Source of the DNA: an uncultured Acidimicrobiia bacterium
GTDB taxonomy: Bacteria; Actinomycetota; Acidimicrobiia; Spongiisociales; UBA11373
Length of the DNA: 35,422 nucleotides
Direction of reading: 5' to 3'
Assembly: GCA_964440905.1 (NCBI GenBank)
Contig: CAYTTU010000246.1
Coordinates: 1-35,422 of the forward strand
Position numbers and translations under genes: made by a program. Positions 2 to 26,502 of the stretch are shown in pieces. Under the pieces are notes generated by a model. The model saw nothing but the letters and a program-made list of their open reading frames with translations, made no database searches and was not told the DNA's origin. Each line of letters starts with the position of its first letter. Position 1 is the stretch's first letter.

Positions 2-670
2 TTGCGACTCCTCGTTCTCGATGACGCCAATACCCTCGCCACCCGCGGCGCCGCCGTCATCACCGAGCATCTGACCGCCGGCGGCGACGTCGGACTCGCC
101 GGCGGATCGACCCCGGAGGCGGCATATCGAGCTCTCCGCACCGCCGAGATCGATTGGTCGCAGATCGATGCCTGGATGACTGACGAGCGACATGTGCCGC
201 TGGACCATCCCGACAACAACGCCGGCATGGCGCGCCGTGCCCTGTTCGAGCGCGTGGCGGCGCGGCTCCATCCCGTGCCGTGGGACGACGACGCCATCAC
301 CGCGGCGCACCGCTACGAGGAACACCTCGCCACTTTCCTCCCGCCCGGGGACTCGGGACCCGAGCCCTCACTGGTGATCCTGGGATTGGGCAGCGACGGC
401 CACACCGCGTCGCTCTTTCCCGACTGCCCCCAGCCGGAACCCAACAGGGACTACACCGCCATCGCGGTGCCCGGAAAGGGATGGCGGCTCACCGCCACCT
501 ACGACCTGCTCGCCCGTGCCCGGCACACCCTCTTCCTGGTGTGCGGTTCCCACAAGGCGGAGGCCCTGGCCGCGGTGCTCGCCGGCGCCCCCTTCCCGGC
601 GACCCGGGTGGCGGCGGAGGCGGCCGACGCCCTGTGGCTGGTGGACCGCGATGCGGCCGCGTTCCTGTGA
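2..670 (+). CDS. pgl: 6-phosphogluconolactonase (Pgl/NagB sugar-phosphate isomerase fold)
   Basis: 222-aa ORF with the LGLGSDGHTASLFP motif typical of Pgl. The N-terminus resembles full-length Pgl proteins. The TTG start is at the window edge, so the true start could lie upstream. Confidence 0.8.
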   Translation: MRLLVLDDANTLATRGAAVITEHLTAGGDVGLAGGSTPEAAYRALRTAEIDWSQIDAWMTDERHVPLDHPDNNAGMARRALFERVAARLHPVPWDDDAITAAHRYEEHLATFLPPGDSGPEPSLVILGLGSDGHTASLFPDCPQPEPNRDYTAIAVPGKGWRLTATYDLLARARHTLFLVCGSHKAEALAAVLAGAPFPATRVAAEAADALWLVDRDAAAFL

Positions 671-677
671 CCTCGAG

Positions 678-1064
678 TCACCGGCCCATCAGGGTCAGCA
701 GATAGCGGGCCAGGTCCGAGTCCGGATCGAGATCCGCCCCGAGGAAGGCCGCGGTCTGCACTTCGCCGGGATCGCACCGCATCTCCTCCAACCGGGCATC
801 GAGATCCCGGCCCTGCTCCTCCATGGCCAGGAGCGCCTCGGGCCACTGTTCCCGATCGCGGGTCTCGTCGAGGGTGACCTGGTCGAGCACCTCGATGAGT
901 GTCTCCAGATAGCGTGCGGTGTCGGCGGCGAGGCGGCCGCAGGTGTCGTTCTCGATGGTGGTCGACGTTCCGGGAAGACTGGTGGTGGGGCTGACGGTGC
1001 CCGAGTCGCAGGCGGCGACAGCGATAGCCACGACGGTGGCCAGGGCAAGGCGGCTGCGGATCAC
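678..1064 (-). CDS. hypothetical lipoprotein
   Basis: 128-aa ORF. N-terminal signal peptide ending in a lipobox-like AVAAC followed by DSG. No domain recognised. It lies 30 nt downstream of the last BMC-P gene on the same strand. Confidence 0.55.
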   Translation of the reverse strand: MIRSRLALATVVAIAVAACDSGTVSPTTSLPGTSTTIENDTCGRLAADTARYLETLIEVLDQVTLDETRDREQWPEALLAMEEQGRDLDARLEEMRCDPGEVQTAAFLGADLDPDSDLARYLLTLMGR

Positions 1065-1090
1065 GACGACCGAGGGTAACGCTCCCTCGG

Positions 1091-1118
1091 CCGTCAGCCG
1101 TCAGCTGTCAGCTGATCG
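1091..1118. repeat. tandem heptamer array: CCGTCAG CCGTCAG CTGTCAG CTGATCG
   Basis: Read directly from the sequence. The array spans the stop codon and last about 7 codons of the BMC-P gene at 1094..1366. Confidence 0.8.
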
Positions 1119-1366
1119 ACTATCCCGACTATCACGGCGCGAATCGGAGCGTCGGCCACACCGACCACCTGGCGAGCCCCGTTGCCCTCGTCGAGGATGA
1201 GCACCATCTCCCCTGCCCCGGCGCCCACCGAGTCCACGCAGATGAGGTAGTCGCCGCCATCCGAACCGTCGGCATCGAGGAGATCGCACATCAGCAGGCG
1301 CCGGCCGTCGTAGATCGGATGGCTGATTGTCGACACCACGGTCCCGGTCACCCGTCCCAGTTTCAC
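1094..1366 (-). CDS. BMC vertex pentamer protein (BMC-P, EutN/CcmL/PduN family), paralogue 3
   Basis: 90 aa. N-terminus MKLGRVTGTVVST plus a GAGxGExV core, both typical of the EutN/CcmL family. 4-nt overlap with the upstream BMC-P gene. Confidence 0.9.
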   Translation of the reverse strand: MKLGRVTGTVVSTISHPIYDGRRLLMCDLLDADGSDGGDYLICVDSVGAGAGEMVLILDEGNGARQVVGVADAPIRAVIVGIVDQLTADG

Positions 1367-1635
1367 GGACGCCGCTCCACCGCGTCCACGATGCCCACGA
1401 TGGCGTGGTCCACGGGCACGAATGGCTCCGGCATCGCCAGTGCTGCCTCCCGGCTGCCCACGACGTACACCAGCTCTCCGGGTCCGGCCATCGCCACTGC
1501 GTCGGCGGCCACCACCGGCCGGCCCTTGGGGCGGCGCTCCCGGTCGAGCGGCTGCACGATGAGGAAACGGACCCCCTCGAGCCCGGGGTATTTCACCGTG
1601 GCGACGACGGTCCCGATCACCTCACCCAGCTGCAT
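1363..1635 (-). CDS. BMC vertex pentamer protein (BMC-P), paralogue 2
   Basis: Internal ATG at 1635 gives 90 aa beginning MQLGEVIGTVVATV. The longer 145-aa ORF has an Arg/Trp-rich, non-protein-like extension that overlaps the upstream gene. Confidence 0.9.
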   Translation of the reverse strand: MQLGEVIGTVVATVKYPGLEGVRFLIVQPLDRERRPKGRPVVAADAVAMAGPGELVYVVGSREAALAMPEPFVPVDHAIVGIVDAVERRP

Positions 1636-2221
1636 CGAATCCCTCCCAACCGACGCGGGTGCCAAAGCGAAATCCGTCGAACAGGTTCCCGCCCATCTCG
1701 GCGTGCAGCTGCGGAATGACCACCGATCCGGCGAGCAGCGCCGGAGGCACCCGTTCCAGACCGATCGCCACCGCCGCCTCCACGTCGGACACGGTGCCAC
1801 AGAACAAGGCGTACGCCTTTCCTCCGAGGCCGTCGGCCAGGTGCAACTCGGCGAGCACCACGGTGGCCCCCTTCACCGCGGCGTCGGCTGCGGCGATGGT
1901 GGCGGCCACCGTCACGGTCTCGATCACTCCGACCGCTTCTCCATCAGGGGGGAACCGTTCACCGCGCACCGCCCCCGCGACCGCGGGATGCACGTCAGGC
2001 AGCAGCACCCGATCGACCAGCGCGGACCCGGACCGGTCGATACCTGCGGCGACCGCCTCTTCGACCGCGGCGACGTCGCCGACGACCATCACCAGGTACT
2101 TGCCGGGGTGGACCGTGCCGCCGAGGATCTCGGCCACCGGCCCCCGCTTGATCATTGCGTCGCCCGCAGCGATGCCGGCCGCGATCGAGGAGAACTCGAG
2201 GATGGCGAGAGCGGGATGCAT
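1622..2221 (-). CDS. tandem-domain BMC shell protein, PduT-like (single-layer BMC-T)
   Basis: ATG at 2221 gives 199 aa beginning MHPALAILEFSSIAAGIAAGDAMIKRG. A second BMC domain begins AVGVIETVTVAATIAAADAAVKG. The protein appears colinear with Salmonella PduT, recalled from memory. The start lies 2 nt after the aldehyde dehydrogenase stop. Confidence 0.85.
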   Translation of the reverse strand: MHPALAILEFSSIAAGIAAGDAMIKRGPVAEILGGTVHPGKYLVMVVGDVAAVEEAVAAGIDRSGSALVDRVLLPDVHPAVAGAVRGERFPPDGEAVGVIETVTVAATIAAADAAVKGATVVLAELHLADGLGGKAYALFCGTVSDVEAAVAIGLERVPPALLAGSVVIPQLHAEMGGNLFDGFRFGTRVGWEGFDAAG

Positions 2222-2222
2222 C

Positions 2223-3674
2223 TCAGACGATCCTGAGGGCGCCGACCACGGCAATACGACGTTCCCGGGTGAAGGTCAGCGGCCGGGTCATGCCGTCGCC
2301 GGAGGGGCTGGCGATGGAAAAGGAGGTGAATCCCTCGCCGCCCTGGCCGAGTCCGGCGTAGTTGGGGCCGTTGGCGATGAAGATCGACACATTGATCGAG
2401 CGCGCCATGCGGGTGATGGTCCCCACGTCGTTGGAGTGGATCGAGGCGGTGTGTCGGAACTGATGCTCGCTGCGAATCGCAAGGTCGATGGCAGCATCGA
2501 CATCGGGTACCACGGTCACCGGCATCACCGGCATCATCTGTTCGGTCCACACCAGGTTGTGGTCGTTGGGCACCACCGCCACCAGAAGACGGGGATCGCC
2601 GTCCACGTCCACCCCGGCGGCGGCGGCGATATCCCGGGCGTTCTTGCCCACCCAGGCCCTATTGATCACACCGGGCTTTCCGGGCGGGCCCATCGTCTCA
2701 AAGATCACTCGCTCCACTTTGCGCAGCTCGTGCTCTTTGAGCACATGGGCGCCATGCCGGGCCATCGCCCTGACCAGTTCGTCGGCCACCGGGCGGACGA
2801 CGATGGTGGTCTTCTCGTCGGTGCAGATCAAGTTGTTGTCGAACGACGCCCCGGCGACGATGTCGCGGGCGGCACGGTCGATGTCGGCGGTCTCATCCAC
2901 CACGGCTGGCGGGTTGCCGGGACCGGCGGTGATCGCCCTCTTGTCGGTCTTGAGCGCCTCGCGTACCACTGCCGGTCCTCCGGTCACCAACAGCACCCGC
3001 ACCTTGGGATGGTGCATCAGCTCCTGGGCGCTCTGGATGGTCGGCTCGGGAACCCCGGTGACGAGATCCGGCGGCCCCCCGGCGGCAAGGATCGCCCGGT
3101 TGAGCAGGCGGATGTTCTCCGCCGATACCCGCCGCGCCCCGGGGTGGGCATTGAACACCACCGCATTGCCGCCGCTGAGAATGGCGATGGTGTTGTTGAT
3201 GAGCGTGGCGGTGGGGTTGGTGGTGGGGGTTATCGACCCGATCACCCCGAACGGAGCGTGCTCGGTGAGCATCATGCCGCCGTCACCGGTTTCGATCAGG
3301 GGTTCGAGATCTTCTGGCCCCGGAGTGCGCGTGGCCACCAGGATGTTCTTGCGAACCTTGTCCTCGGGGCGGCCCAGGCCGGTCTCCTCGTGGGCCATCT
3401 TTGCCAGGTGCTCGGCGGAGGCGAGCATGGCGTTGCGGATCGAGGCCACGACCGCCCCCCGGATCCCGGTGCCGAGGGCGGTATAGCGGTCGTAGGCACG
3501 TTCGGCGGCGTCGACGGCCTCATTGACGGTGGCATACATCCCCTCCCCCAGGGAGGCCTCCGGCACCTCGACCGGCACCCGGGGATGGGCCGGGGCGGCG
3601 TCGGCGGTGCCGCCAAGGCGCGCTCGCACCCGGGCGATGATCTCCTGGACCTCGCGCTCCGAGGGCGTCTTCAT
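2223..3674 (-). CDS. CoA-acylating aldehyde dehydrogenase (PduP/EutE-like) with N-terminal encapsulation-peptide-like helix
   Basis: 483 aa. Core resembles the EutE/PduP family ([45 protein letters not shown]). The N-terminal segment [16 protein letters not shown] is followed by a Pro/Ala-rich linker. Confidence 0.9.
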
Positions 3675-3675
3675 C

Positions 3676-3963
3676 TCACTTCACGTACTTCACGTCGCCG
3701 CCGACCTCCCAGGTATCGACGATGGCCATCACCACCGCGTCGCACGGCCGGTCACGGGTGGACTCGGTCTGGCGGGCCGAAGAACCGGTGGCATACATCA
3801 CGACTTCCCCGACCCCGGCCCCTACCGCGTCTGCGGCGACCACATAGGCCGAGGTGTCCGACTCATCGACATCGATCTGCCGGACGACGAGGAACTTGAG
3901 TCCCTCGAGGGTCGGCTCCTTGCGCGACGCCACCAGGGTCCCGACGACACGGCCGAGGAGCAC
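3676..3963 (-). CDS. BMC vertex pentamer protein (BMC-P), paralogue 1
   Basis: 95 aa beginning [15 protein letters not shown], with an [13 protein letters not shown] core. EutN/CcmL family. Confidence 0.9.
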
Positions 3964-3978
3964 TCGTCCGCTCCCGGG

Positions 3979-4281
3979 TCAGGCCGACTCGGCCGCGGCC
4001 TCGTCGGCGCGACCGAGGGGCAGGACCAGGTCGATGTTGACGTGGGGACGGGCGATGACGTGCGTCGACACCACTTCGCCGACCTTCTCGGCGCCGCGAA
4101 TGCCGGCATCGATGGCGGCCTTCACCGCGGCGACGTCACCGCGAACGATCGCGGTTACGTAGCCGCCGCCGGTCTTCTCGTATGAGACGAGCTCCACCTT
4201 GGCGGCCTTCACCATCGCATCCGCTGCCTCCACCATCGCCGCGAACCCGCGGCACTCGATCATTCCCAGTGCTTCAGCCAT
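3979..4281 (-). CDS. BMC hexamer shell protein (BMC-H, PduA/EutM-like)
   Basis: 100 aa: [32 protein letters not shown]...[19 protein letters not shown]. This is a canonical single BMC domain. Confidence 0.92.
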
Positions 4282-4329
4282 TGGTCTCCGCTCTCCCTTT
4301 CTGGTGTCCTTGCGGCGGGGCCGCCCCCG

Positions 4330-4956
4330 TCACGAAATGTCTCTGCCGGCCAGTCCCTCAAGGGCGGCGACGGCGGCGCGCCAGCCGACGTCGATGTCGC
4401 GCTCCTCGCCCCCGAGATAGACCCGCCCCAGCGATCCGAAGGATCGCACCTCGAGAACGTTTATGTTGGCCGCCTTCTCCGCCTCGTTGGCCGCCAGAGC
4501 GGCGTAACACGCCGGCTCCATCTCCAGCAGGTACAGCGTCTGGCCGGGGATGATCATCTGGCCGTGGCGCATCCGGTTGATCAACTGCGCCTGGTGGTCG
4601 TCGATGCGCCGGATGATCTGGCTCGAGGCGATGCGGGGCTTGAAGCGGTCCGTCTCGGTGGCTCCGATTTCGGCGAGGATCGCTGCCCCCGCCGCCCGGG
4701 TCTCCGCCTGCGAGGGCGAGTGGACCTCGAGCAGACCGAAGTAGCGCTCGACTATCTGCATGCCCGGCTTCACCGTGGTGGCCTTGAGGGCGACATCGGT
4801 GAGCCGGTTGATCTCGATACCCGGGGAGATCTCGACGTAGAGCGAGGCATCTCCGGCGAGTGGCAGGAAGCCCTGGGCCACCGTGCCGAGGAATGCGGCG
4901 TACTGCGGTTGGAGGCTGTCGAGGAACGAGTAGCCCCGAAGATCAATACCTGCCAC
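4330..4956 (-). CDS. tandem permuted BMC shell protein (BMC-T, CsoS1D/CcmP/HO-T2-like double-stacking type)
   Basis: 208 aa with a GTG start at 4956 preceded by GGGAGG. It contains [20 protein letters not shown]...[32 protein letters not shown] and [15 protein letters not shown]. These resemble the Haliangium BMC-T2/T3 and CsoS1D class, recalled from memory. Confidence 0.8.
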
Positions 4957-5800
4957 TCGAAGTACCTCCCGTCACGATCTGGACCCCGGCTGAAGCCCCG
5001 ATACGGGTGGCCCCGGCCGCGATCATCTGTTTGGCGTCCTCGACACTACGGATTCCCCCGGAGGCCTTCACCCCGATCTTCGGGCCGACTGCCTCCCGCA
5101 TCAACGCCACGTCGTACACCGTGGCCCCTCCCGGGCCGAACCCGGTGGAGGTCTTCACGAAGTCCGCCTTGGCCTCGACCGCGATCTGGGAAGCGATCAC
5201 CTTCTCCTCGTCACTCAGCAGCGCGGTCTCGAGAATCACCTTGCACAATGCCCCCGCTTCGCGGCACGCCTCGCTGACCCCGGCGATGTCTTGACGGACC
5301 GTGTCGAAGAGCCCGGACTTGAGGGCTCCAACGTTGATCACCATGTCGATCTCCCGGGCTCCGTCCCGTAGGGCGCGCCGGGCCTCCATCGCCTTGATCT
5401 CAGGGGTGGACGCCCCGAGGGGGAATCCGACGACACAGCATGCCACCACCGGCGTGCCCTTGAGGGCCTCGGCGACCCGCTTCGCCCAGGTGGGGTTCAC
5501 GCACACCGACGCAAACCCGTACTCGATCGCCTCGGAGCACATTCGGTCGATCTCCGCGGCGGTGGCTTCGGGTTTGAGCATGGTGTGATCGATGAACCCG
5601 GCGAGATCCGTGGGCACATCGGCGCCGGCCCCGTTGTAGGTGACCCGGGTCGCCCCGGCGGCGAGCACCGACCGCACCTTGGGGGCCGAGTGGGCGACGC
5701 AGTCCCCAAGGCAGGTGAGGCACTCGTCCCAGGCTTCACCAGCGAGGGAGGCCAGGACCTCCCGGGTGATCGCTTCGATGAGGTCGTCGCGCTCGGTCAT
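4943..5800 (-). CDS. deoC: deoxyribose-phosphate aldolase (DERA) with N-terminal extension
   Basis: ATG at 5800 overlaps the rpiB stop (ATGA) and gives 285 aa. The DERA core includes [34 protein letters not shown] and DFVKTSTGF. About 70 extra N-terminal residues include the helix [17 protein letters not shown] and a CX2CX3C motif. Confidence 0.9.
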
Positions 5801-6363
5801 GCCGACACCTGGAGCCGAGGTCCGTCCAGGGCGTCGATCTTGGCGACCCGCCGAGCGTGGCGTCCCTCGCCCCACGGGGTCTCCAGCCAGGCGGTGACGA
5901 TCTCCCAGGCCAGGTTCTCCCCGATCAACCCCGCACCCAGGGTCAGGACGTTGGCGTGGTTGTGCTCCCGGGAATTGCGCGCCGACGAGACGTCGTAGCA
6001 CAGGGCCGCCCGGACTCCGACCACCTTGTTGGCCGCCATCGCCGAGCCGATCCCGGCGCCGTCGACCACGATCCCGGCAATGCAGGCGCCACTGGCCACC
6101 TGCAGGGCCACCGCGACCGCAAAGTCCGGGTAGTCGACGGGGTCTGCCGAGTCGGTCCCGCAATCGACTACAGCGTGCCCTGCCTCGCGCAACCGGAATG
6201 CGAGCCGTTCCTTGAGGCGGTAACCGCCATGATCTGCACCAATGGCGATGGCCCCCGAAGGTGCCGCCACCGGGGTCACCAGGGGTGGCGCCTGCGGGGA
6301 GGGACTGGCGACCGCATCGACGACCCGGGCGACGAGTTGGCGCACCTCGGTCTCGCTGGGCAT
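5797..6363 (-). CDS. rpiB: ribose-5-phosphate isomerase B (RpiB/LacAB family) with N-terminal extension
   Basis: ATG at 6363 gives 188 aa. The core includes [37 protein letters not shown] and [15 protein letters not shown]. The N-terminal segment [18 protein letters not shown] is followed by a Pro-rich linker. Confidence 0.9.
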
Positions 6364-6384
6364 GTCTCGGCGCACCACCAGGCG

Positions 6385-6390
6385 ATTATC
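6385..6390 (-). promoter_or_regulatory. candidate -10 element (GATAAT on minus strand) for the BMC operon
   Basis: This is the only A/T-rich hexamer between the rpiB ATG (6363) and the heptamer arrays, and lies 22 nt upstream of the ATG. No convincing -35 element was seen. The -35 region would fall inside the first TCGGGCG units. Confidence 0.25.
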
Positions 6391-6404
6391 CCACGGCGGA
6401 CCGT

Positions 6405-6581
6405 CGCCCGACGCCCGATGCCCGATACCCGACTCCCGACGCCCGACGCCCGACGCCCGAGCCAGACCCAGAACCCGAGCCAGAACCCGAACCCGCGCCA
6501 GAACACGGGGCATTCGGGATCGGGTATCGGGAGTCGGAAGTCGGGAGTCGGGGTTCGGACTCGCCCCTCGCCCCTCGCCCC
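6405..6581. repeat. inverted heptamer arrays: 8 x NNCCCGA (6405-6460), CCAGAACCCGA-type spacer, about 7 x TCGGGNN (6513-6559), then 3 x TCGCCCC (6561-6581)
   Basis: Read directly from the sequence. The left and right arms are imperfect reverse complements with a 5/7 invariant core per unit. The minus strand of the left arm reads (GGGN4)8. Confidence 0.85.
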
Positions 6582-6587
6582 TAGATT
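6582..6587 (+). promoter_or_regulatory. candidate -10 element (TAGATT) for a leaderless HTH-gene transcript
   Basis: A TANNNT hexamer lies 7 nt upstream of the in-frame GTG at 6595, with no Shine-Dalgarno sequence between them. This pattern is typical of leaderless actinobacterial mRNAs. Confidence 0.3.
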
Positions 6588-6594
6588 TCGCCCC

Positions 6595-7173
6595 GTGGAC
6601 CCCGCCTTCACCTGGGACCAACCCAAGCCCAAGACTCCTCGGGCGCCACGCGACCCCGCCGCCGCGGCCCTCCCCCCAACCGGAGAGCGCATCACCTTGC
6701 GCGAGGCGGAGCATCGCTTCGGAGTGCCTGTGGCCACACTGCGCACCTGGGCCCGCAAAGGTGCGGTCGATGCCGTGATGACCGCCGACCAGGGTCAGCG
6801 GCAGTGGGTGGTGACCCCCGAGTCGGTGGCCCACCATCTCTCCCGGGCCGCCAAGACTGTGCCGCGACCCGGTCGAAAAGCTGCCACGAAAGGCAAGCCG
6901 ACGGGGCGGCGGGCCACCGGGCCCACCGGCGACGGGACTGCGATGCTGGTGCCCCGCGACGCCTGGGACCGCCTGATCGACCAGTTGGGGAACCTGCACG
7001 AAACGGGGCTGATGCTCGCCGAGGCACGGGAGCGCGCCGCCCGGGCCGAAACCGAGGCGGGCTTTCTGCGCGAGCGGCTCGCTGAGATCCGGACGGAGCG
7101 CGATGGGCTGCGGGCCGGCACCAGCGATGTCCCGCCAACACCGCGACGGTGGCGGAGGCTCTTCGGACGATGA
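6595..7173 (+). CDS. HTH (excisionase/MerR-like, HTH_17-type) DNA-binding protein with C-terminal coiled coil
   Basis: Only the last part of the 438-aa ORF looks protein-like. ITLREAEHRFGVPVATLRTWARKGAVDA is a helix-turn-helix segment. The C-terminal part ARERAARAETEAGFLRERLAEIRTERDGL is coiled-coil-like. The GTG at 6595 is the first plausible start, so the start is uncertain. Confidence 0.6.
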   Translation: MDPAFTWDQPKPKTPRAPRDPAAAALPPTGERITLREAEHRFGVPVATLRTWARKGAVDAVMTADQGQRQWVVTPESVAHHLSRAAKTVPRPGRKAATKGKPTGRRATGPTGDGTAMLVPRDAWDRLIDQLGNLHETGLMLAEARERAARAETEAGFLRERLAEIRTERDGLRAGTSDVPPTPRRWRRLFGR

Positions 7174-7216
7174 GTCCCGTAACGGTGGCGGAACGCAACC
7201 TGCCTAGGTTGGGACC

Positions 7217-8134
7217 GTGAGCGAAGCCGCCCCGATCATCGCCGTCTCCGGTCTGCGGTTCGCCTACGGCAATCTGCTCGCCATCGACGGAATCGACCTC
7301 GCGGTGCCTGCAGGGCGCATCGGGCTGGTCGGAGCCAACGGGGCAGGCAAGACCACTCTTCTCAAGATCCTGATCGGGGTGTTGCCCGCCGGGTCGGGAT
7401 CGGTGCAGGTGCTGGGGCATTCGGTGGCGAGCGCCACGCTCGAGGTCCGCAGCAGGGTTGGGTGGATGCCCGAGGGCGACTGCCTTCCCCCGGATCAGAC
7501 TGCCGCCGACTTCCTGGGTTACGCCGCAGAGCTCGGTGGCCTGCCGGCGCGCGCCGCCCGACAGCGCGCCAGCGACGTGCTGGGGTTGGTGGGGCTCGAC
7601 GAGGAGCGCTTCCGCTTCATCGGTGAGTTCTCCACCGGTATGAAGCAGCGCGCCAAGCTGGCCCAGGCCATCGTGCACGATCCTCAGCTGGTGCTCCTCG
7701 ACGAGCCGACCGCAGGACTCGACCCCGAGGGGCGCGAGGAAATGCTCGACCTGATCACTCGGCTGGAGGGGTTCGGGATCAACGCCGTGATCTCGTCGCA
7801 CGTCCTCACCGACATCGAGCGCACCTGCGAATGGGTGGTGATGCTCGACGGAGGCAAGGTGCTCCGCTCCGGACCGCTGTCCGACCTTGCCACCTTCGAC
7901 GAGGCCGAATTGGAGGTGATTGGTGACGCCGAGGGTGTCGTCGCCGAGGCCACCCGGCTCGGAGCCGAGGTGCACCGTCACGGCCCATCGTTGGTGATCT
8001 CGCGTCCTGGCGGGAACGCCTTCGACGTCGCCCGCGACGCGGTAGTCGCCGCCGGGGCGGCCATCCGCCGCCTCGGGGCGCGCCGCACCACCCTTGAGGA
8101 CGTCTTCCTCGGCGAGGAGGAACCCCGTGGCTGA
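7217..8134 (+). CDS. ABC transporter ATP-binding protein (ABC-2 type)
   Basis: 305 aa with Walker A GANGAGKTT, signature FSTGMKQR and Walker B LVLLDEPTAGLD. Confidence 0.9.
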   Translation: MSEAAPIIAVSGLRFAYGNLLAIDGIDLAVPAGRIGLVGANGAGKTTLLKILIGVLPAGSGSVQVLGHSVASATLEVRSRVGWMPEGDCLPPDQTAADFLGYAAELGGLPARAARQRASDVLGLVGLDEERFRFIGEFSTGMKQRAKLAQAIVHDPQLVLLDEPTAGLDPEGREEMLDLITRLEGFGINAVISSHVLTDIERTCEWVVMLDGGKVLRSGPLSDLATFDEAELEVIGDAEGVVAEATRLGAEVHRHGPSLVISRPGGNAFDVARDAVVAAGAAIRRLGARRTTLEDVFLGEEEPRG

Positions 8135-10677: not shown

Positions 10678-10680
10678 GAG

Positions 10681-10708
10681 ATCTCAGATCTCAGGTGTCA
10701 GATCTCAG
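10681..10708. repeat. tandem heptamer array: ATCTCAG ATCTCAG GTGTCAG ATCTCAG
   Basis: Read directly from the sequence. The array begins 4 nt after the permease stop codon. Confidence 0.85.
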
Positions 10709-10792: not shown

Positions 10793-11413
10793 ATGGACCT
10801 GGAGTTTCTCAAGGAGATGGGCGAGTCGCTCAAGGGGACCAACATCGACTCGGTGGAGGAGTTCGAGCAGGCGCTCGTCGATCGCGTGAAATACCTGCGG
10901 CTCTCGGTGTCCGATCTCGACATCCAATACGACAAGGGCGTCGCCACCGTGATGGGCATGGTTCCGGATCAGGCGACCAAGGAGAAGATCATCCTCGCCG
11001 TCGGAAACGTCAAGGGTGTGGCCAAGGTGAAGGACAGCCTGGCCGTCGGCCTCACCGCCTCCCAGAAGGCCGAGTTGCGCAAGCGAGCCGCGGTTCGGGC
11101 CGGCTCCAAGTCGGCGGCGGCCGCTGCCGCCGCCGCCAAGGCCGCCGAAAAGGCCCGTAAGGAGGCCAAGGCCAAGTTCGAGCTCGAGGTGCGCCGCGCC
11201 GCCTTCAAGAAGGAACTGTCCGCCCGGGCCAAGGACGGGGCCAAGGCCTCGGTCACCTACACCGTGAAGAAGGGCGACAGCCTCAGCAAGATCGCCAAGA
11301 AGCTCTACGGCGACTCCTCGAAGTGGAAGGCGATCTTCGAGGCCAACCAGCCGCTCATCAAGAAGGCCGACCTGATCTACCCCGGCCAGGTGCTGCGGAT
11401 TCCGAAGATCTAG
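10793..11413 (+). CDS. BON-domain plus LysM-domain protein (Kbp/YgaU-like) with Ala/Lys-rich linker
   Basis: ATG at 10793 is preceded by AGGAGAAGGAG. 206 aa. The BON-like part contains GVATVMGMVPDQATKEKIILAVGNVKGVAKVKDSL. The C-terminal LysM domain contains YTVKKGDSLSKIAKKLYGDSSKWKAIFEANQPLIKKADLIYPGQVLRIP. Confidence 0.85.
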   Translation: MDLEFLKEMGESLKGTNIDSVEEFEQALVDRVKYLRLSVSDLDIQYDKGVATVMGMVPDQATKEKIILAVGNVKGVAKVKDSLAVGLTASQKAELRKRAAVRAGSKSAAAAAAAAKAAEKARKEAKAKFELEVRRAAFKKELSARAKDGAKASVTYTVKKGDSLSKIAKKLYGDSSKWKAIFEANQPLIKKADLIYPGQVLRIPKI

Positions 11414-11434
11414 ATCTCAGGTCTCAGATCTCAG
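11407..11434. repeat. tandem heptamer array: GATCTAG ATCTCAG GTCTCAG ATCTCAG
   Basis: Read directly from the sequence. The first unit contains the TAG stop of the BON-LysM gene. The unit is the same as in the array at 10681-10708. Confidence 0.85.
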
Positions 11435-11490: not shown

Positions 11491-11525
11491 CCTGAGATCT
11501 GACATCTGACATCTGAGATCGAAGA
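11491..11525. repeat. tandem heptamer array: CCTGAGA TCTGACA TCTGACA TCTGAGA TCGAAGA (inverted relative to 11407-11434)
   Basis: Read directly from the sequence. It is the reverse complement of the (A/G)TCTCAG unit. Confidence 0.85.
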
Positions 11526-15153: not shown

Positions 15154-16514
15154 CCGCCGCCGACAGCGCCCGGCGGACCCGTGCCGGCGATCCGTGTCGG
15201 ACCCGCATCGCCGCGGCGCTGGACCTGATCGCCGCCGACCGGCTCAACGCCTTCACGTCGACCGACGCCGGGGCCCCGGACCGAGCGGCCGAGATCGATG
15301 CCCTGGTCGGAGCCGGGATCGACCCGGGACCCCTCGCCGGAGTGCCCATCGCCCTCAAGGACATCGTCGATCACGCTGGCCGCGTGACCACGGCCGGCTC
15401 GTCGTTCTACCGCCATCGGGCGGAGCGATCCGCCCCGGTGGTCGATCGCCTCGAGGCTGCCGGCGCGGTGGTGGTCGGACGCACCGGTTTGCACGAATTC
15501 GCCCTGGGGTTCTCCTCGGAGAACGACTGGTTCGGCCCGGTGCGCAACCCATGGGACCCGCTGACCTCGCCCGGCGGCTCATCGGGCGGCTCGGCGGCGG
15601 CAGTGGCGGCTGGCATCGTGCCGATTGCGGTGGGCACCGACACCGGGGGGTCGATCCGCGTCCCGGCGGCATTGTGCGGGTGCGTCGGCCTGAAACCCAC
15701 CCACGGGCGAGTGCCTCTCACCGGGGTGTTCCCGCTCGCCCCATCCCGAGACACGGTGGGCCCGATCGCCACAACGGTCGAGGACGCCGCCACCGCATAC
15801 GCGGCGATGGCAGGCGACGATCCCGACGATCCGTGGTCGCGGCCGATGCCGGTGCGCACCGCAAGCGGGCCGGCCCCCCTTGCCGGAGTTCGCATCGGCA
15901 TCCCCCATCCCTGGGTCGACCGTCCGCTCGCGGCCGCGGTCGCCGCCGCCTGGGAGCGGGTGCTCCGGGCACTCACCGCGACCGGGGCGGTCGTCGTCGA
16001 CCTCGACGCTCCGAACCTCGACCCGAAAAGCATGCCGCGCGCCGTGTACGCCGAGGCCGGGGCGGTCCATCGGGAGTGGTACCAGGAGGATCCGGCGCGA
16101 TACGGCCCGGCGATCCGGGACCGGCTCGCCCTGGACATGAATCACGGCGCCGATGCGGTCCTCGCCGCGGTGGCCTGGCGCCAGCGGCTCATCGGCGGGT
16201 TCGAGCGGCAGTTGGGTCAGGTCGATCTCCTGCTCACGCCGACCACACCCACCCGGCGCAAGGAGATCGGCGTCGACCTGGTCGAAGCGGGTTCAGCACC
16301 GGAACCCCATCGCCAGGCCCTGTCGTGGTTCACCAACCTCGTCAACCAGGCGGGTCTGCCCGCGCTGGCGCTGCCCCTGGCAGGGACCGCCGTCGACGGA
16401 CCGCCGGTGTCGATCCAACTGATCGGGCCGGCATGGGGGGAACAGAGGATCCTCGAAATCGGTTGGGGTATGGAGAAGGAGGGCCTGGTCGGACACCAGA
16501 GCCCGCCACGGTGA
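15150..16514 (+). CDS. amidase (amidase-signature family, GatA-like)
   Basis: GTG at 15150 overlaps the upstream stop (GTGA). 454 aa. The AS motif is GGSSGGSAAAVAAGIVPIAVGTDTGGSIRVPAALCG, with an upstream PIALKD lysine. Confidence 0.85.
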   Translation: MTAADSARRTRAGDPCRTRIAAALDLIAADRLNAFTSTDAGAPDRAAEIDALVGAGIDPGPLAGVPIALKDIVDHAGRVTTAGSSFYRHRAERSAPVVDRLEAAGAVVVGRTGLHEFALGFSSENDWFGPVRNPWDPLTSPGGSSGGSAAAVAAGIVPIAVGTDTGGSIRVPAALCGCVGLKPTHGRVPLTGVFPLAPSRDTVGPIATTVEDAATAYAAMAGDDPDDPWSRPMPVRTASGPAPLAGVRIGIPHPWVDRPLAAAVAAAWERVLRALTATGAVVVDLDAPNLDPKSMPRAVYAEAGAVHREWYQEDPARYGPAIRDRLALDMNHGADAVLAAVAWRQRLIGGFERQLGQVDLLLTPTTPTRRKEIGVDLVEAGSAPEPHRQALSWFTNLVNQAGLPALALPLAGTAVDGPPVSIQLIGPAWGEQRILEIGWGMEKEGLVGHQSPPR

Positions 16515-16628: not shown

Positions 16629-18491
16629 GTGTCGGAAGCGCCCACGATCGACAATACCGAGGCCGAGCAGATTCACACCGTTGCGATCCGCTTCGCCGGT
16701 GACTCCGGTGACGGCATGCAGCTCGCCGGAGCACGCTTCACCGATGCCTCGGCGATCTTCGGCAACGACCTGAGCACGTTCGCCAATTTCCCTGCCGAGA
16801 TCCGCGCCCCGGCCGGCACCCTCCCCGGTGTGTCGTCGTTCCAGGTCCACATCGCCGACCGCGACATTCTGACCCCCGGCGACCAGCCCGACGTGCTGGT
16901 CGCCATGAACCCGGCGGCGCTCAAGGCCAACCTGTCCGACCTTGCCCCCGCCGGGATCCTGATCGTCAACACGGACGCCTTCGACGAGCGCAACCTCGCC
17001 AAGGCCGGCTATGCCACCAATCCCGTCGAGGATGGATCGCTCGACGCCTACCGAGTGCTCAAGGTCCCGATGGAGGACCTCACCAAGCGAGCCCTCGAAG
17101 GGTCGGGGGTCAAGGGCCGCGATGCCCTGCGCTCGAAGAACTTCTTCGCCGTGGGACTGATGACCTGGATGTTCAACCGTCCGCTGGATCCCACGCTGGA
17201 GTGGATCGCGTCGAAGTTCTCCAAGGAGCCTGACATCAAGGCAGCCAACGAGCTCGCCTTCCGCGCCGGATACAACCTGGGCGAGACCACCGAGATGTTC
17301 CGCCACACCTATCGGGTCGAGCCGGCCCGGCTCCCCGCCGGGACATACACCAACGTCACCGGGAATCAGGCGCTCGCCTGGGGGATCATCGCCGCGGGCC
17401 AGGCCGCCCGCCTTCCGGTGTTCTACGCCTCATACCCGATCACTCCGGCCTCGGACATCCTCCACGAGCTGGCGCGTCACCGCAACTTCGGGGTGCGCAC
17501 CTTCCAGGCCGAGGACGAGATCGCCGCGGTGGGAGCGGCATTGGGCGCGGCGTTTGCCGGCCACTTCGCCATCACCGGCACCTCCGGACCCGGCCTCGCT
17601 CTGAAGAGCGAGACCATGAGCCTGGGGCTGATGACCGAACTGCCGCTGCTCGTGATCGACGTGCAACGCGGCGGACCTTCCACCGGCCTGCCCACCAAGA
17701 CCGAGCAGGCAGACCTGCTCATGGCGATGTACGGACGCCACGGCGAGTCGCCGCTGCCGATCGTCGCCATCTCGAACCCGTCCGACGCCTTCGGGGCCAC
17801 CATCGAGGCGGCTCGGATCGCCCTCAAGTACATGACCCCCGTGATCCTGCTCTCCGACGGTTACATCGGCACCAGCACCGAGCCATGGCGGCTCCCCGAC
17901 CTGGCCGAGCTTCCCGACATCTCGGTGCCCTTCGCCGTCGCCCCCAACGGGCCCGACGCCACCTTCCTCCCCTACCTGCGCGATGAAAAGACCCTGGCTC
18001 GGCCCTGGGCCGTCCCCGGCACCCCGGGGCTCGAGCACCGCATCGGTGGCCTCGAGAAGGAGAACGTGTCGGGCAACATCTCGTACGCGCCCGACAACCA
18101 CGAGCGCATGACGCAGCTGCGCGAGTCCAAGATCCGCGGGATCGCCGCCGATATCCCCCAGGTGACCGTCGACGCCGACGAAGGCGCCAAGGTCCTGGTG
18201 CTCGGATGGGGTTCCTCGTACGGAGCGATCCTGGCCGGGGTTCGCCGGGTACGTGCCCAAGGCAAGAAGGTCGCCCGGATCCACCTCCGCCACCTCAACC
18301 CGTTCCCGGCCAACCTCGGCGATGCCCTGCGCGGCTTCGACCGCGTGCTGGTCCCCGAACTCAACCGGGGTCAGTTGGTGAAATTGGTGCGCGCCGAGTT
18401 CCTGGTGGACGCGGTCAGCTACCCCAAAGTGGAAGGCCAGCCCTTCAAGGCGTCGGAGATCGAGGCCAAGCTATTGGAGATGATCGGATGA
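16629..18491 (+). CDS. korA: 2-oxoglutarate/2-oxoacid:ferredoxin oxidoreductase, alpha subunit
   Basis: 620 aa. AIRFAGDSGDGMQLAG, FANFPAEIRAP and SYPITPASDILHEL are typical of actinobacterial KorA. Confidence 0.9.
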   Translation: MSEAPTIDNTEAEQIHTVAIRFAGDSGDGMQLAGARFTDASAIFGNDLSTFANFPAEIRAPAGTLPGVSSFQVHIADRDILTPGDQPDVLVAMNPAALKANLSDLAPAGILIVNTDAFDERNLAKAGYATNPVEDGSLDAYRVLKVPMEDLTKRALEGSGVKGRDALRSKNFFAVGLMTWMFNRPLDPTLEWIASKFSKEPDIKAANELAFRAGYNLGETTEMFRHTYRVEPARLPAGTYTNVTGNQALAWGIIAAGQAARLPVFYASYPITPASDILHELARHRNFGVRTFQAEDEIAAVGAALGAAFAGHFAITGTSGPGLALKSETMSLGLMTELPLLVIDVQRGGPSTGLPTKTEQADLLMAMYGRHGESPLPIVAISNPSDAFGATIEAARIALKYMTPVILLSDGYIGTSTEPWRLPDLAELPDISVPFAVAPNGPDATFLPYLRDEKTLARPWAVPGTPGLEHRIGGLEKENVSGNISYAPDNHERMTQLRESKIRGIAADIPQVTVDADEGAKVLVLGWGSSYGAILAGVRRVRAQGKKVARIHLRHLNPFPANLGDALRGFDRVLVPELNRGQLVKLVRAEFLVDAVSYPKVEGQPFKASEIEAKLLEMIG

Positions 18492-19534
18492 CCACAGAAG
18501 CCCGCTACACCCGCGCCGACTTCCAGACGGACCAGGAGGTTCGGTGGTGCCCCGGGTGCGGCGATTACACGATCCTCGCCTCGGTGCAGAGTTTCATGGC
18601 CGAGATGGGGGTGGACAAGGAGAAGATCGTCTTCGTGTCGGGGATCGGGTGTGCCTCGCGGTTCCCCTACTACATGAATACCTATGGGCTTCACGCCATC
18701 CACGGCCGCGCCCCCGCAATCGCCTCGGGGCTGGCGGTGGCTCGCCCCGAGCTGTCGGTGTGGGTGGTCGCCGGCGACGGCGACGCCATGTCCATCGGCG
18801 GAAACCATCTGATCCACGCGCTGCGCCGCAACATCAATCTCAAGATCCTGGTGTTCAACAACCAGATCTATGGCCTCACCAAGGGCCAGTACTCCCCCAC
18901 CTCCGAAGTGGGAAAGCGCACCAAGTCGAGTCCCTTGGGCTCGATCGACTTTCCGTTCAACCCGGTGAGCCTGGCACTAGGAGCAGAGGCGACCTTCGTT
19001 GCCCGCACCGTGGACATGGACCGGGCGCACACCACCGAGATCCTCAAGCAGGCCCATGCCCACCGCGGTACCGCTTTCGTGGAGATCTATCAGAACTGCA
19101 ACGTGTTCAACGACAAGGCGTTCATCGCACTCACCGGCAAGGAGGTGCGGGACCACAACCGCATCAATCTGGTCCACGGCGAAAAGGTCCTGTTCGGGCC
19201 GGAGCGGGAGCGCGGGGTCATCATCGAGGGTGGGACGGCCCGCATCGTCGACGTCGCCGAGGTTGGGCTCGATGCCATCCACACCCACGATGCCACCGCC
19301 GCCAGCGCCGGTCCGGCGTACGCCCTGAGCCGCCTCAGTCACGGCCCGGTCGGCCCCACCCCGGTCGGAGTGTTCCGTTCCGTCGATCGCCCGGTGTACG
19401 AGGAGACCCTGCAGCAGCAGATCCACGATGCCCAGGCCAAGCGCGGCCCTGGCGACCTCGCTGCCCTGATCGCCTCCGCCGGCACCTGGACGGTCGAGGC
19501 CGGTGGCGAGCCCGAGCTGCCCAGTCATAGCTAG
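18488..19534 (+). CDS. korB: 2-oxoglutarate/2-oxoacid:ferredoxin oxidoreductase, beta subunit
   Basis: ATG at 18488 overlaps the korA stop (ATGA). 348 aa with WCPGCGDY and the TPP-binding segment GDGDAMSIGGNHLIHALRRN. Confidence 0.9.
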   Translation: MTTEARYTRADFQTDQEVRWCPGCGDYTILASVQSFMAEMGVDKEKIVFVSGIGCASRFPYYMNTYGLHAIHGRAPAIASGLAVARPELSVWVVAGDGDAMSIGGNHLIHALRRNINLKILVFNNQIYGLTKGQYSPTSEVGKRTKSSPLGSIDFPFNPVSLALGAEATFVARTVDMDRAHTTEILKQAHAHRGTAFVEIYQNCNVFNDKAFIALTGKEVRDHNRINLVHGEKVLFGPERERGVIIEGGTARIVDVAEVGLDAIHTHDATAASAGPAYALSRLSHGPVGPTPVGVFRSVDRPVYEETLQQQIHDAQAKRGPGDLAALIASAGTWTVEAGGEPELPSHS

Positions 19535-19564
19535 GAAGCTGACAGCTGACAGCTAGAGACTGAG
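19529..19564. repeat. tandem heptamer array: AGCTAGG(A) AGCTGAC AGCTGAC AGCTAGA GACTGAG
   Basis: Read directly from the sequence. The first unit contains the korB TAG stop. Confidence 0.8.
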
Positions 19565-19720: not shown

Positions 19721-20397
19721 TGTTCGCCGTCTCGGTGGCCACCAGTGTGCTCGCCGCATTGTTCGCCACCGATCTGCTGCGGCGCTGGGTGCGGCGCCGC
19801 GAGCGGCGCCACCTGCTGTGGTGGGGGGCCGGTGTGGTCGCCTACGGGTTGGGGACGCTGGCGGCGGCCGTCGTCGAGCGGTCCGGGTGGACCCCGGGCT
19901 GGTTCCGCACCTGGTACGTCGCCGGGGCGATCCTGGGTGGGGCGCTGCTCGCCACCGGAACGGCGCACCTGCTGCATCGTCCTGCAACGGCGAGCCGTAT
20001 CGGGCAGTCGGTGATCGTTCTCGCCGTCGGAGCCACCGCGGCCCTCGCCCTCGCTCCGATCGCCCCGCTGCCCTCGGGTGATCTCGCCGGGGACTCGATC
20101 GCCTGGGGATGGGTGCGCGCCTTTACTCCGGTGCTCAACACCTATGCCGTGGTGTACCTGGTGGGCGGTGCGGTGCGATCGGCAATGCGCCACACCGACC
20201 GCCGCCGAGTCGCCGGAAACGTGTTGATCGCCCTGGGCGGCCTCACCCCCGCCTTCGGAGGTGTGGCCTCCCGCCTCGGTGGTGCCGATGCCTTGCCCCC
20301 CACCCTGCTGGCCGGGCTGGTGCTGATCTGGACGGGAGCGGTGCTGGCGGGCGGGCAGAAGGTACGAACGCAGGAGGATCGGGGCTCGGGGCTATGA
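19720..20397 (+). CDS. hypothetical multi-pass membrane protein
   Basis: Internal ATG at 19720 gives 225 aa beginning MFAVSVATSVLAALFATDLL, with about 6 hydrophobic helices. No family recognised. Confidence 0.6.
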   Translation: MFAVSVATSVLAALFATDLLRRWVRRRERRHLLWWGAGVVAYGLGTLAAAVVERSGWTPGWFRTWYVAGAILGGALLATGTAHLLHRPATASRIGQSVIVLAVGATAALALAPIAPLPSGDLAGDSIAWGWVRAFTPVLNTYAVVYLVGGAVRSAMRHTDRRRVAGNVLIALGGLTPAFGGVASRLGGADALPPTLLAGLVLIWTGAVLAGGQKVRTQEDRGSGL

Positions 20398-20418
20398 ACG
20401 ATGAGCGACGAGCGATGA
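20391..20418. repeat. tandem heptamer array: GCTATGA ACGATGA GCGACGA GCGATGA
   Basis: Read directly from the sequence. The first unit contains the TGA stop of the membrane protein gene. Confidence 0.8.
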
Positions 20419-20439
20419 GACCGGAGAGCTGGATCGGCT

Positions 20440-20467
20440 TCGCCCATCGCCCATCGCCCATCGCCGC
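20440..20467. repeat. tandem heptamer array: 3 x TCGCCCA + TCGCCGC
   Basis: Read directly from the sequence. Confidence 0.85.
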
Positions 20468-20475
20468 ACCCTCAA

Positions 20476-20517
20476 GGCCAATAGCCAATAGCCAATAGCC
20501 AATAGCCAATAGCGGAG
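20476..20517. repeat. tandem heptamer array: GGCCAAT + 4 x AGCCAAT + AGCGGAG
   Basis: Read directly from the sequence. It ends 20 nt before the convergent methyltransferase stop. Confidence 0.9.
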
Positions 20518-25554: not shown

Positions 25555-25582
25555 CTGGGCACTAAGCACTAGGCACTAGGCG
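25555..25582. repeat. tandem heptamer array: CTGGGCA CTAAGCA CTAGGCA CTAGGCG
   Basis: Read directly from the sequence. It starts 2 nt after the lipoprotein stop. Confidence 0.85.
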
Positions 25583-26467: not shown

Positions 26468-26502
26468 AACCTAGTGCCAAGTGCCTAGTGCTTAGTGCCT
26501 AC
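26468..26502. repeat. tandem heptamer array: AACCTAG TGCCAAG TGCCTAG TGCTTAG TGCCTAC (inverted relative to 25555-25582)
   Basis: Read directly from the sequence. Positions 26482-26499 are the exact reverse complement of 25558-25575 (18 nt). The last unit contains the atpC stop. Confidence 0.85.

Follow-up and report, generated by a model that had tools for sequence, protein, structure and literature searches.

The bacterial microcompartment (BMC) loci closest to the one described here belong to the sugar-phosphate-utilisation (SPU) class and, within it, to subtype SPU3. According to Sutter et al. 2021 (Supplementary Data 2), the enzymes of SPU3 are an aldehyde dehydrogenase (AldDh), a pfam01791 protein and a pfam02502 protein only, the pfam02502 gene lying upstream. 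In the SPU3 shell, a single standard BMC-H is combined with three BMC-P, two of them adjacent, with a BMC-Tdp of the CcmP kind and with a BMC-Ts that has neither a pore Cys nor an accompanying PduS. N-terminal encapsulation peptides are present on AldDh and on deoxyribose-phosphate aldolase (DERA). No phosphotransacylase (PTAC) is encoded. The hosts include Actinobacteria. The present locus is a nine-gene operon in a 35,422-nucleotide stretch of DNA from an uncultured Acidimicrobiia bacterium (assembly GCA_964440905.1, contig CAYTTU010000246.1, positions 1 to 35,422), referred to below as the window. It is assigned to SPU3 by match to the written description of the subtype, not by shell-protein colour clades.

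Two other SPU types are known from experiments. The DERA of SPU6 (Chloroflexi bacterium GWB2_54_36) was purified after deletion of its N-terminal extension, which was needed to obtain a soluble enzyme, and is active on deoxyribose-5-phosphate (dR5P) in this shortened form. The SPU6 protein of the ribose-5-phosphate isomerase family (RPI) forms complexes with DERA and has negligible activity on ribose-5-phosphate (R5P), the only substrate assayed (Dwyer, Sutter & Kerfeld 2024; PMC11585597). A preliminary annotation of the window, made without database searches (the sequence-only reading), held that no SPU member had been characterised biochemically; these assays of SPU6 DERA and RPI overturn that statement. 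The shell of Asgard archaeal SPU-type microcompartments reportedly self-assembles (2025 bioRxiv preprint; PMC12747264).

The nine open reading frames (ORFs) are co-directional and occupy the minus strand from 6363 to 1094, exactly the span of the sequence-only reading. Their order of transcription is RpiB-like protein (RPI), DERA, BMC-Tdp, BMC-H, BMC-P1, AldDh, BMC-Ts, BMC-P2 and BMC-P3. Coding sequences overlap at four junctions, namely RPI/DERA (4 nt; ATGA, the DERA start codon overlapping the RPI stop), DERA/BMC-Tdp and BMC-Ts/BMC-P2 (14 nt each) and BMC-P2/BMC-P3 (4 nt). The remaining gaps measure 1–48 nt. Matches to PF00936 and three to PF03319 lie inside 5.3 kb, the pattern of BMC loci in general. 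The NCBIfam cut-offs used are 117 bits for deoC, 403 for PRK15398, 139 for rpiB (TIGR01120) and 340 for the CcmP equivalog. By their profile scores, the family matches of the nine ORFs are no chance pattern. The profiles proposed for checking the annotation (PF00936, PF03319 and those of AldDh, DeoC and RpiB) are all matched, the permuted BMC-T falling below threshold in Pfam but being clear with NCBIfam CcmP; the description of six shell genes with AldDh, DERA and an RpiB-family protein as an SPU-type metabolosome operon agrees with these matches.

AldDh, DERA and RPI are the only enzymes encoded inside the operon. No PduL/PTAC, PduS or alcohol dehydrogenase gene is detected by Pfam scans of ORFs in the rest of the 35-kb window. 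A signature enzyme of a characterised microcompartment type (PDU, propanediol utilisation; EUT, ethanolamine utilisation; GRM, glycyl radical enzyme) is likewise not detected in the 29 kb upstream and 1 kb downstream of the operon (Pfam scans of ORFs), nor in the 10-kb flanks of the loci of three relatives (L082, L084, L085; L numbers denote related genome loci). The possibility raised beforehand, that such an enzyme might lie nearby and place the locus in a known type, thus finds no support in the window or in these flanks.

The signature enzyme DERA (4943–5800, minus strand, 285 aa) matches TIGR00126 deoC with 277 bits and Pfam DeoC with E 4.7e-18. Its best PDB match is 8QPS (275 bits), aligned over residues 65–283 only. 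PDB DERAs align only from residue 65, and the preceding N-terminal extension of about 65 aa, the feature that accompanies the DeoC-type aldolase in SPU loci, is also kept in relatives (compared across 80 loci). Catalytic D152, K216 and K245 are retained and are invariant in the alignment of relatives. An amphipathic helix is recognized in the sequence at residues 6–19 and is followed by a low-complexity linker; in an AlphaFold2 model (58-sequence alignment) the helix spans residues 3–20, and residues 21–36 have a predicted local distance difference test score (pLDDT) below 50. The extension has a second helix at residues 39–47.

AldDh (2223–3674, minus strand, 483 aa) matches Pfam Aldedh (pfam00171, E 1.4e-37) and PRK15398 (593 bits). 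Its best PDB match is 5JFL (405 bits), to which the catalytic Cys284 is aligned and present. By these matches it is identified as the BMC-associated CoA-acylating type. The N-terminus forms a predicted amphipathic helix (residues 7–20, hydrophobic moment 0.55), followed by an Ala/Pro linker.

The RpiB-like protein (5797–6363, minus strand, 188 aa), product of the first operon gene, matches Pfam LacAB_rpiB (E 8.4e-51) and NCBIfam rpiB (TIGR01120, 146 bits, above the cut-off). It begins with a predicted amphipathic helix (residues 5–18, hydrophobic moment 0.57) and a Pro-rich linker. All three enzymes of the operon thus start with a strongly amphipathic 14-residue helix and continue with a Pro/Ala/Gly linker, an arrangement that reads as encapsulation peptides. 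In several non-actinobacterial loci (L031–L045 and similar ones; Acidobacteriota and others), the N-terminal extension of the RPI-like protein is of another kind, with no such short helix but with '(I/L)VTPLA(R)…(I/V)' as a recurring motif.

Six shell proteins are encoded in the operon, and a search for more finds none elsewhere in the window. BMC-H (3979–4281, minus strand, 100 aa; Pfam BMC, PF00936, E 2.5e-30), the putative facet hexamer, carries Lys25 and an ARPH motif. Its nearest solved homologue is the Haliangium ochraceum (HO) hexamer Hoch_5815 (PDB 5DJB, 146 bits). BMC-P1 (3676–3963, minus strand, 95 aa; Pfam EutN_CcmL, PF03319, E 5e-29) is a putative vertex pentamer, with 5V74 Hoch_5814 as the best PDB match (121 bits). 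BMC-P2 (1363–1635, minus strand, 90 aa; EutN_CcmL E 8e-26) and BMC-P3 (1094–1366, minus strand, 90 aa; EutN_CcmL E 2e-24), the latter encoded by the last gene of the operon, form an adjacent pair at the 3' end, and BMC-P1 is solitary. The three BMC-P are distinct paralogues of 35–40 % identity, BMC-P1 being 40 % identical to each of the other two. In close relatives BMC-P3 is 8 aa longer.

BMC-Tdp (4330–4956, minus strand, 208 aa) has permuted tandem BMC domains. Its Pfam BMC score of 22.8 bits is just below the cut-off of 24.5, and its NCBIfam CcmP score of 333 bits is slightly short of the equivalog cut-off. Against solved structures the scores are 289 bits for CcmP 4HT5 (E 1e-85, full length), 255 for HO-T3 (5V76), 229 for HO-T2 (5V74 Hoch_5816) and 180 for CsoS1D. 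On these scores BMC-Tdp is classified as a CcmP-type double-stacking trimer, CcmP/HO-T3-like and not CsoS1D/HO-T2-like as originally proposed. Glu70-Arg71, presumably the pore-gating pair, is kept. The pair is common to BMC-Tdp and to CcmP of the beta-carboxysome (PDB 4HT5, 5LSR), its best-scoring solved relative; the carboxysome is anabolic, whereas the window homologue belongs to a predicted catabolic, aldehyde-trapping operon.

BMC-Ts (1622–2221, minus strand, 199 aa; Pfam BMC E 1.3e-28, two domains) is a putative tandem-domain trimer of the PduT fold. It scores about 138–140 bits against the PduT structures 3PAC and 3N79 and 99 bits against HO-T1. Where PduT has Cys38 as Fe-S ligand, BMC-Ts has His38 ('tiCpgkf' in PduT aligned to 'tvHpgky'). 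The label 'PduT-like' given in the first annotation is therefore correct for the fold and incorrect for the Fe-S ligand.

All tested features of SPU3 are present: the enzyme set, the CcmP-like BMC-Tdp, the BMC-Ts with His38 and without PduS, and the N-terminal encapsulation peptides. Nothing essential differs between the window locus and the subtype, so that the SPU class named in the sequence-only reading can be narrowed, feature by feature, to SPU3. Three differences are of lesser weight. A divergently encoded helix-turn-helix (HTH) protein of HTH_17/MerR-like type is the candidate regulator in place of GntR or SorC. RPI and DERA are separate genes, whereas they are fused in some SPU3 loci. 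The motif in the DERA extension is reduced to three Cys and one His. The configuration has been catalogued since 2021, and the locus is a genuine, intact and well-conserved further case of SPU3.

SPU6 shares with the window locus a DERA extension of about 65–70 aa, the D/K/K catalytic residues, an RPI with an encapsulation peptide and with Asp in place of Cys66, the RPI gene directly upstream of DERA, and the proposed chemistry from dR5P to glyceraldehyde-3-phosphate (G3P) plus acetaldehyde and on to acetyl-CoA. It differs in the C-terminal encapsulation peptide of its AldDh, which belongs to the EUT2/3-GRM branch, in a 'blue'-clade BMC-Tdp, in a GntR/UTRA regulator, in an EutQ-like protein and in being restricted to Chloroflexi hosts. 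The window locus has an N-terminal AldDh peptide, a CcmP-like BMC-Tdp, a BMC-Ts and an Acidimicrobiia host; by the end of the AldDh that bears the peptide, by BMC-Tdp type and by host it does not belong to SPU6. The SPU-type microcompartment of Hodarchaeales (PMC12747264) is similar in its DERA and AldDh core, peptide-dependent cargo loading and proposed role in DNA salvage. It is unlike the window locus in the fusion of DERA to a flavoprotein domain, the presence of PTAC and citrate synthase, a BMC-P paralogue with a DNA-binding disordered tail, and the archaeal host.

Conservation was assessed by searching 80 related genome loci with the nine proteins (tblastn); further loci are cut by contig ends. 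The identical nine-gene order is found in 17 of the 80: 11 from Actinomycetota/Acidimicrobiia, 3 from Chloroflexota, 1 from Granulosicoccus (a gammaproteobacterium) and 2 unclassified. A BMC-P2 orthologue stands in the same position in all 17. In close relatives, whose DERA is 89–92 % identical, synteny with the window extends beyond 18 kb. Gene order and neighbourhood synteny together indicate a stable locus, vertically maintained in the lineage. A DERA counterpart at 97 % identity is deposited from an 'Acidimicrobiia bacterium' metagenome-assembled genome (MAG), and more than 100 full-length metagenomic relatives of this DERA are 69–92 % identical. Among species-representative genomes, MAGs of Actinomycetota and Acidimicrobiia are nearest, in keeping with the actinobacterial type of host recognized at the outset. 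The GC content is 66–73 % throughout the window, and the operon is not distinct from its surroundings.

Taken together, the locus is quite likely a complete SPU3 metabolosome operon for catabolism of dR5P via DERA and AldDh in an uncultured Acidimicrobiia bacterium. By homology, BMC-H hexamers would tile the facets and the three BMC-P pentamers would cap the vertices; BMC-Ts, devoid of the Fe-S ligand, and the gated CcmP-like BMC-Tdp would provide special pores. Encapsulation peptides would send DERA, AldDh and the RpiB-like protein to the lumen. Upon entry into the shell, dR5P derived from DNA or nucleoside breakdown would be cleaved by DERA to G3P, which exits, and acetaldehyde, which AldDh would capture as acetyl-CoA with the formation of NADH. 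Since PTAC, alcohol dehydrogenase and PduS are absent from the operon and the surrounding 30 kb, the cofactors must cross the shell: NAD+/NADH and CoA/acetyl-CoA would pass it, probably through the BMC-Tdp pore. Cofactor passage through the shell has been suggested for SPU types without PTAC (Dwyer et al. 2024; PMC11585597). The RpiB-like protein, translationally coupled to DERA, would serve as a core that binds DERA or as its assembly partner. The divergent HTH protein would regulate the operon.

Some points weigh against this assignment of function. DERA activity in the pathway is inferred from that of the SPU6 orthologue, the only one for which it has been shown. The genes deoA, deoB and deoD, which would supply dR5P, are not found in the window. 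Cofactor recycling without PTAC, alcohol dehydrogenase or PduS lacks an explanation.

The pocket of the RpiB-like protein was compared with the RpiB structures 3PH3 and 1NN4, with RpiB of E. coli and M. tuberculosis and with a housekeeping paralogue. Asp101 replaces Cys66 of the E. coli enzyme, Ala103 replaces Thr68, and Ser107 stands for Glu75 of M. tuberculosis RpiB. Neither Cys66 with Thr68 nor the Glu75 base of a functional RpiB is therefore present, despite the TIGR01120 score above cut-off. The protein has instead the properties of SPU RPIs: it is a pfam02502 member with Asp for Cys66 and an N-terminal encapsulation peptide, and its gene adjoins that of DERA. Asp likewise occurs in all SPU RPIs (Dwyer et al. 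2024; PMC11585597). Among 71 BMC-linked homologues, Asp is found in all 71, Ala in 69 and Ser in all 71; the sugar-phosphate-binding residues D44, H45, H134, R168 and R172 are each present in 71 of 71.

With Asp for catalytic Cys66 and Ala for Thr68, a role as ribose-5-phosphate isomerase is doubtful. The near-invariance of the altered pocket in the 71 homologues favours a retained role in ligand binding or catalysis over a decayed scaffold. A canonical RpiB of 148 aa with the catalytic Cys ('VVCGSG') is encoded in a close relative (L082, 16955–17401), about 4 kb from the SPU3 operon; the separate canonical gene supports the view of the BMC copy as a specialised paralogue. In L082 the canonical gene adjoins a gene for a polyphosphate kinase-NUDIX fusion. 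The original label 'RpiB' is thus accurate as to family (LacAB_rpiB, TIGR01120) and not as to a working ribose-5-phosphate isomerase, in view of the Asp/Ala pocket and of the inactivity of the SPU6 orthologue on R5P. The RpiB-like protein is most likely a DERA-binding core or assembly partner, possibly a sugar-phosphate-binding subunit, rather than an isomerase.

The strict conservation of the pocket also accommodates a different or second sugar phosphate as substrate. Asp101 would then be the catalytic base of an isomerase that is active but changed in specificity and works before or after DERA, and dR5P would not be the sole or true substrate. A carboxylate base is present in RpiB of M. tuberculosis (cited in PMC11585597), and the SPU6 protein was offered no sugar phosphate except R5P. 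The proposal is nonetheless unlikely: the isomerase activity of the SPU6 protein on R5P is negligible, no pathway connects the RPI product to DERA without a transketolase, SPU5 and part of SPU4 have no RPI, and LacA-type subunits with Asp at that position are not the catalytic partner.

Much less probable is a microcompartment of the HO type, of unknown function, with DERA and RPI merely adjoining. The HO shell (PDB 5V74, 5DJB, 5V76, 5DIH) resembles that of the window in having one BMC-H, three BMC-P, BMC-Ts and BMC-Tdp. For BMC-H and BMC-P1 the closest solved homologues are HO proteins, and HO-T3 is second-best for BMC-Tdp. Those of SPU5 and SPU7 come nearest to the HO AldDh, and some HO genomes hold, elsewhere in the genome, a DERA with an extension like an encapsulation peptide (Sutter et al. 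2021). The HO main locus, however, has AldDh but no DERA or RPI beside its shell genes and has two BMC-Tdp, whereas the window has one, and the BMC-Ts of the window is nearer to PduT than to HO-T1. The window operon begins with RPI and DERA, whose coding sequences overlap and whose products both bear encapsulation peptides, and this composition defines SPU3.

Least probable of all is an inactive relic, or a DERA run in the synthetic direction (acetaldehyde and G3P to dR5P) as an aldehyde sink: the DERA reaction is reversible and no cofactor-recycling enzymes are encoded, but the nine ORFs are intact, catalytic residues are kept, GC content is as in the genome, DERA is 69–97 % identical among more than 100 metagenomic relatives, gene order is kept across phyla, and an acylating AldDh suits catabolic trapping of aldehyde.

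The dR5P metabolosome remains the preferred interpretation. The DERA extension has a second feature of its own. Between the helix and the barrel lies a Cys/His motif, C27-x2-C30-x3-C34-x2-H37 (residues 27–38; window positions 5687–5722, minus strand). Of 80 BMC-type DERAs, drawn from many phyla, 56 have at least four Cys in the N-terminal extension, typically as C-x2-C-x3-C-x3-C or C-x-C-H-x5-C-C-P-D-R. In DERAs of the window clade, near-invariance is confined to C30, C34 and H37; C27 is present in 32 of 58 sequences. The motif is entirely lost in a sister clade of Acidimicrobiia. The ancestral pattern across phyla would be about C-x2-C-x3-C-x3-C, reduced in the window to C27/C30/C34/H37. The AlphaFold2 model does not resolve the motif, which falls in the stretch of low pLDDT. 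The main text of Dwyer et al. 2024 (PMC11585597) makes no mention of it.

It is conceivable, though rather doubtful, that the SPU DERA extension is more than an encapsulation peptide and forms a Cys-rich metal- or Fe-S-binding knuckle. Such a site is possible but least convincing for the DERA of the window itself. If real, it could govern aggregation and encapsulation of cargo or sense the redox state. Taken with the invariant Asp pocket of the RPI-like partner, the DERA-RPI core would then be a regulated assembly that responds to ligands, and not an enzyme plus a dead scaffold.

The locus opens no new class of system. It adds one more intact SPU3 operon, from an uncultured member of Acidimicrobiia, and supports a wide spread of deoxyribose/DNA-salvage microcompartments in environmental Actinomycetota. 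SPU3, which combines three enzymes with six shell genes and does without enzymes for cofactor recycling, represents the minimal SPU design and is a compact candidate for heterologous reconstitution of shell and cargo. The locus is a test case for metabolosome function without internal recycling of NAD+ and CoA and for the job of the conserved Asp-type RPI. The Cys motif and the altered RPI pocket are leads for specialists, not findings, and the practical value of the locus is modest.

The gene for the HTH protein (HTH_17/MerR-like, 6595–7173, plus strand, 192 aa, with a coiled-coil tail) is divergent from the operon. Its Pfam HTH_17 match (E 8e-4) is below the cut-off, and no NCBIfam match is found. 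Homologues are divergently encoded beside the RPI gene in nine Acidimicrobiia loci (L001, L008, L010–L012, L014–L017). In loci of other lineages this position is held by GntR/UTRA or SorC regulators of the sugar-phosphate type. From its position and family, the HTH protein is the likely candidate regulator of the operon.

A GC-rich stem-loop of 12 bp without a U-tract (1065–1095, minus strand) is predicted by RNA folding immediately 3' of the BMC-P3 stop codon. The fold of 1060–1125 has an energy of -37.8 kcal/mol (z = -5.2), and none of 200 shuffled sequences is as stable. The hairpin probably forms the 3' terminus of the operon transcript or stabilises it. No consensus sigma-70 promoter or intrinsic terminator is detected in scans of 600–7300, in which the hairpin after BMC-P3 is missed as well.

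The divergent intergenic region (6364–6594) contains TGGGATAAT, about 25 nt upstream of the RPI start codon, and inverted heptamer arrays. In these, CCGACGC repeated 8.6 times (6401–6460) faces TCGGGAN repeated 5.8 times (6514–6552), giving an imperfect inverted repeat of 45–51 nt. The arrays were considered as an operator and set aside, because similar arrays fill many spacers of the window and the equivalent spacer of relatives is without them (about 105 bp and no arrays in L084).

Outside the operon, the window is ordinary chromosome by gene content, with ABC transporters, MurJ, nickel superoxide dismutase, an amidase, a 2-oxoacid:ferredoxin oxidoreductase, an F1Fo ATP synthase operon and serine hydroxymethyltransferase. 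The two-subunit 2-oxoacid:ferredoxin oxidoreductase genes (16629–19534, plus strand; POR/POR_N/PFOR_II, TPP_enzyme_C) may be relevant to acetyl-CoA metabolism and are not linked to the operon. The pgl gene (2–670, plus strand; TIGR01198, 149 bits) does lie just downstream of the operon, as described in the first annotation. It is convergent with the operon and is parted from it by a 128-aa ORF. It is next to the operon only in close relatives with a syntenic neighbourhood and is absent beside other Acidimicrobiia SPU3 loci. A functional link of pgl to the operon is therefore not supported and is rejected.

The 128-aa ORF (678–1064, minus strand) comes directly after the 3' hairpin and has the orientation of the operon. 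Its inclusion as a tenth BMC gene was weighed and rejected: a lipoprotein-type signal sequence (…AVAAC) is present, no Pfam or NCBIfam match is found, and conservation of the ORF is limited to close relatives (L001, L082, L084). The ORF probably has nothing to do with the BMC.

Tandem arrays with a 7-bp unit number fourteen in the intergenic spacers of the window, with a different heptamer at each site. They are located at 1090–1112, 6401–6582, 10679–10708, 11406–11434, 11492–11520, 19537–19554, 20379–20513, 25558–25581 and 26470–26501. The BMC-P3 stop codon is supplied by one of them, that at 1090–1112 (Tandem Repeats Finder, TRF). Among the simple-sequence repeats of bacteria, those with heptanucleotide units are known to be common (PMC4679880). 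In L084 heptamer arrays occur at other sites (15160–15303).

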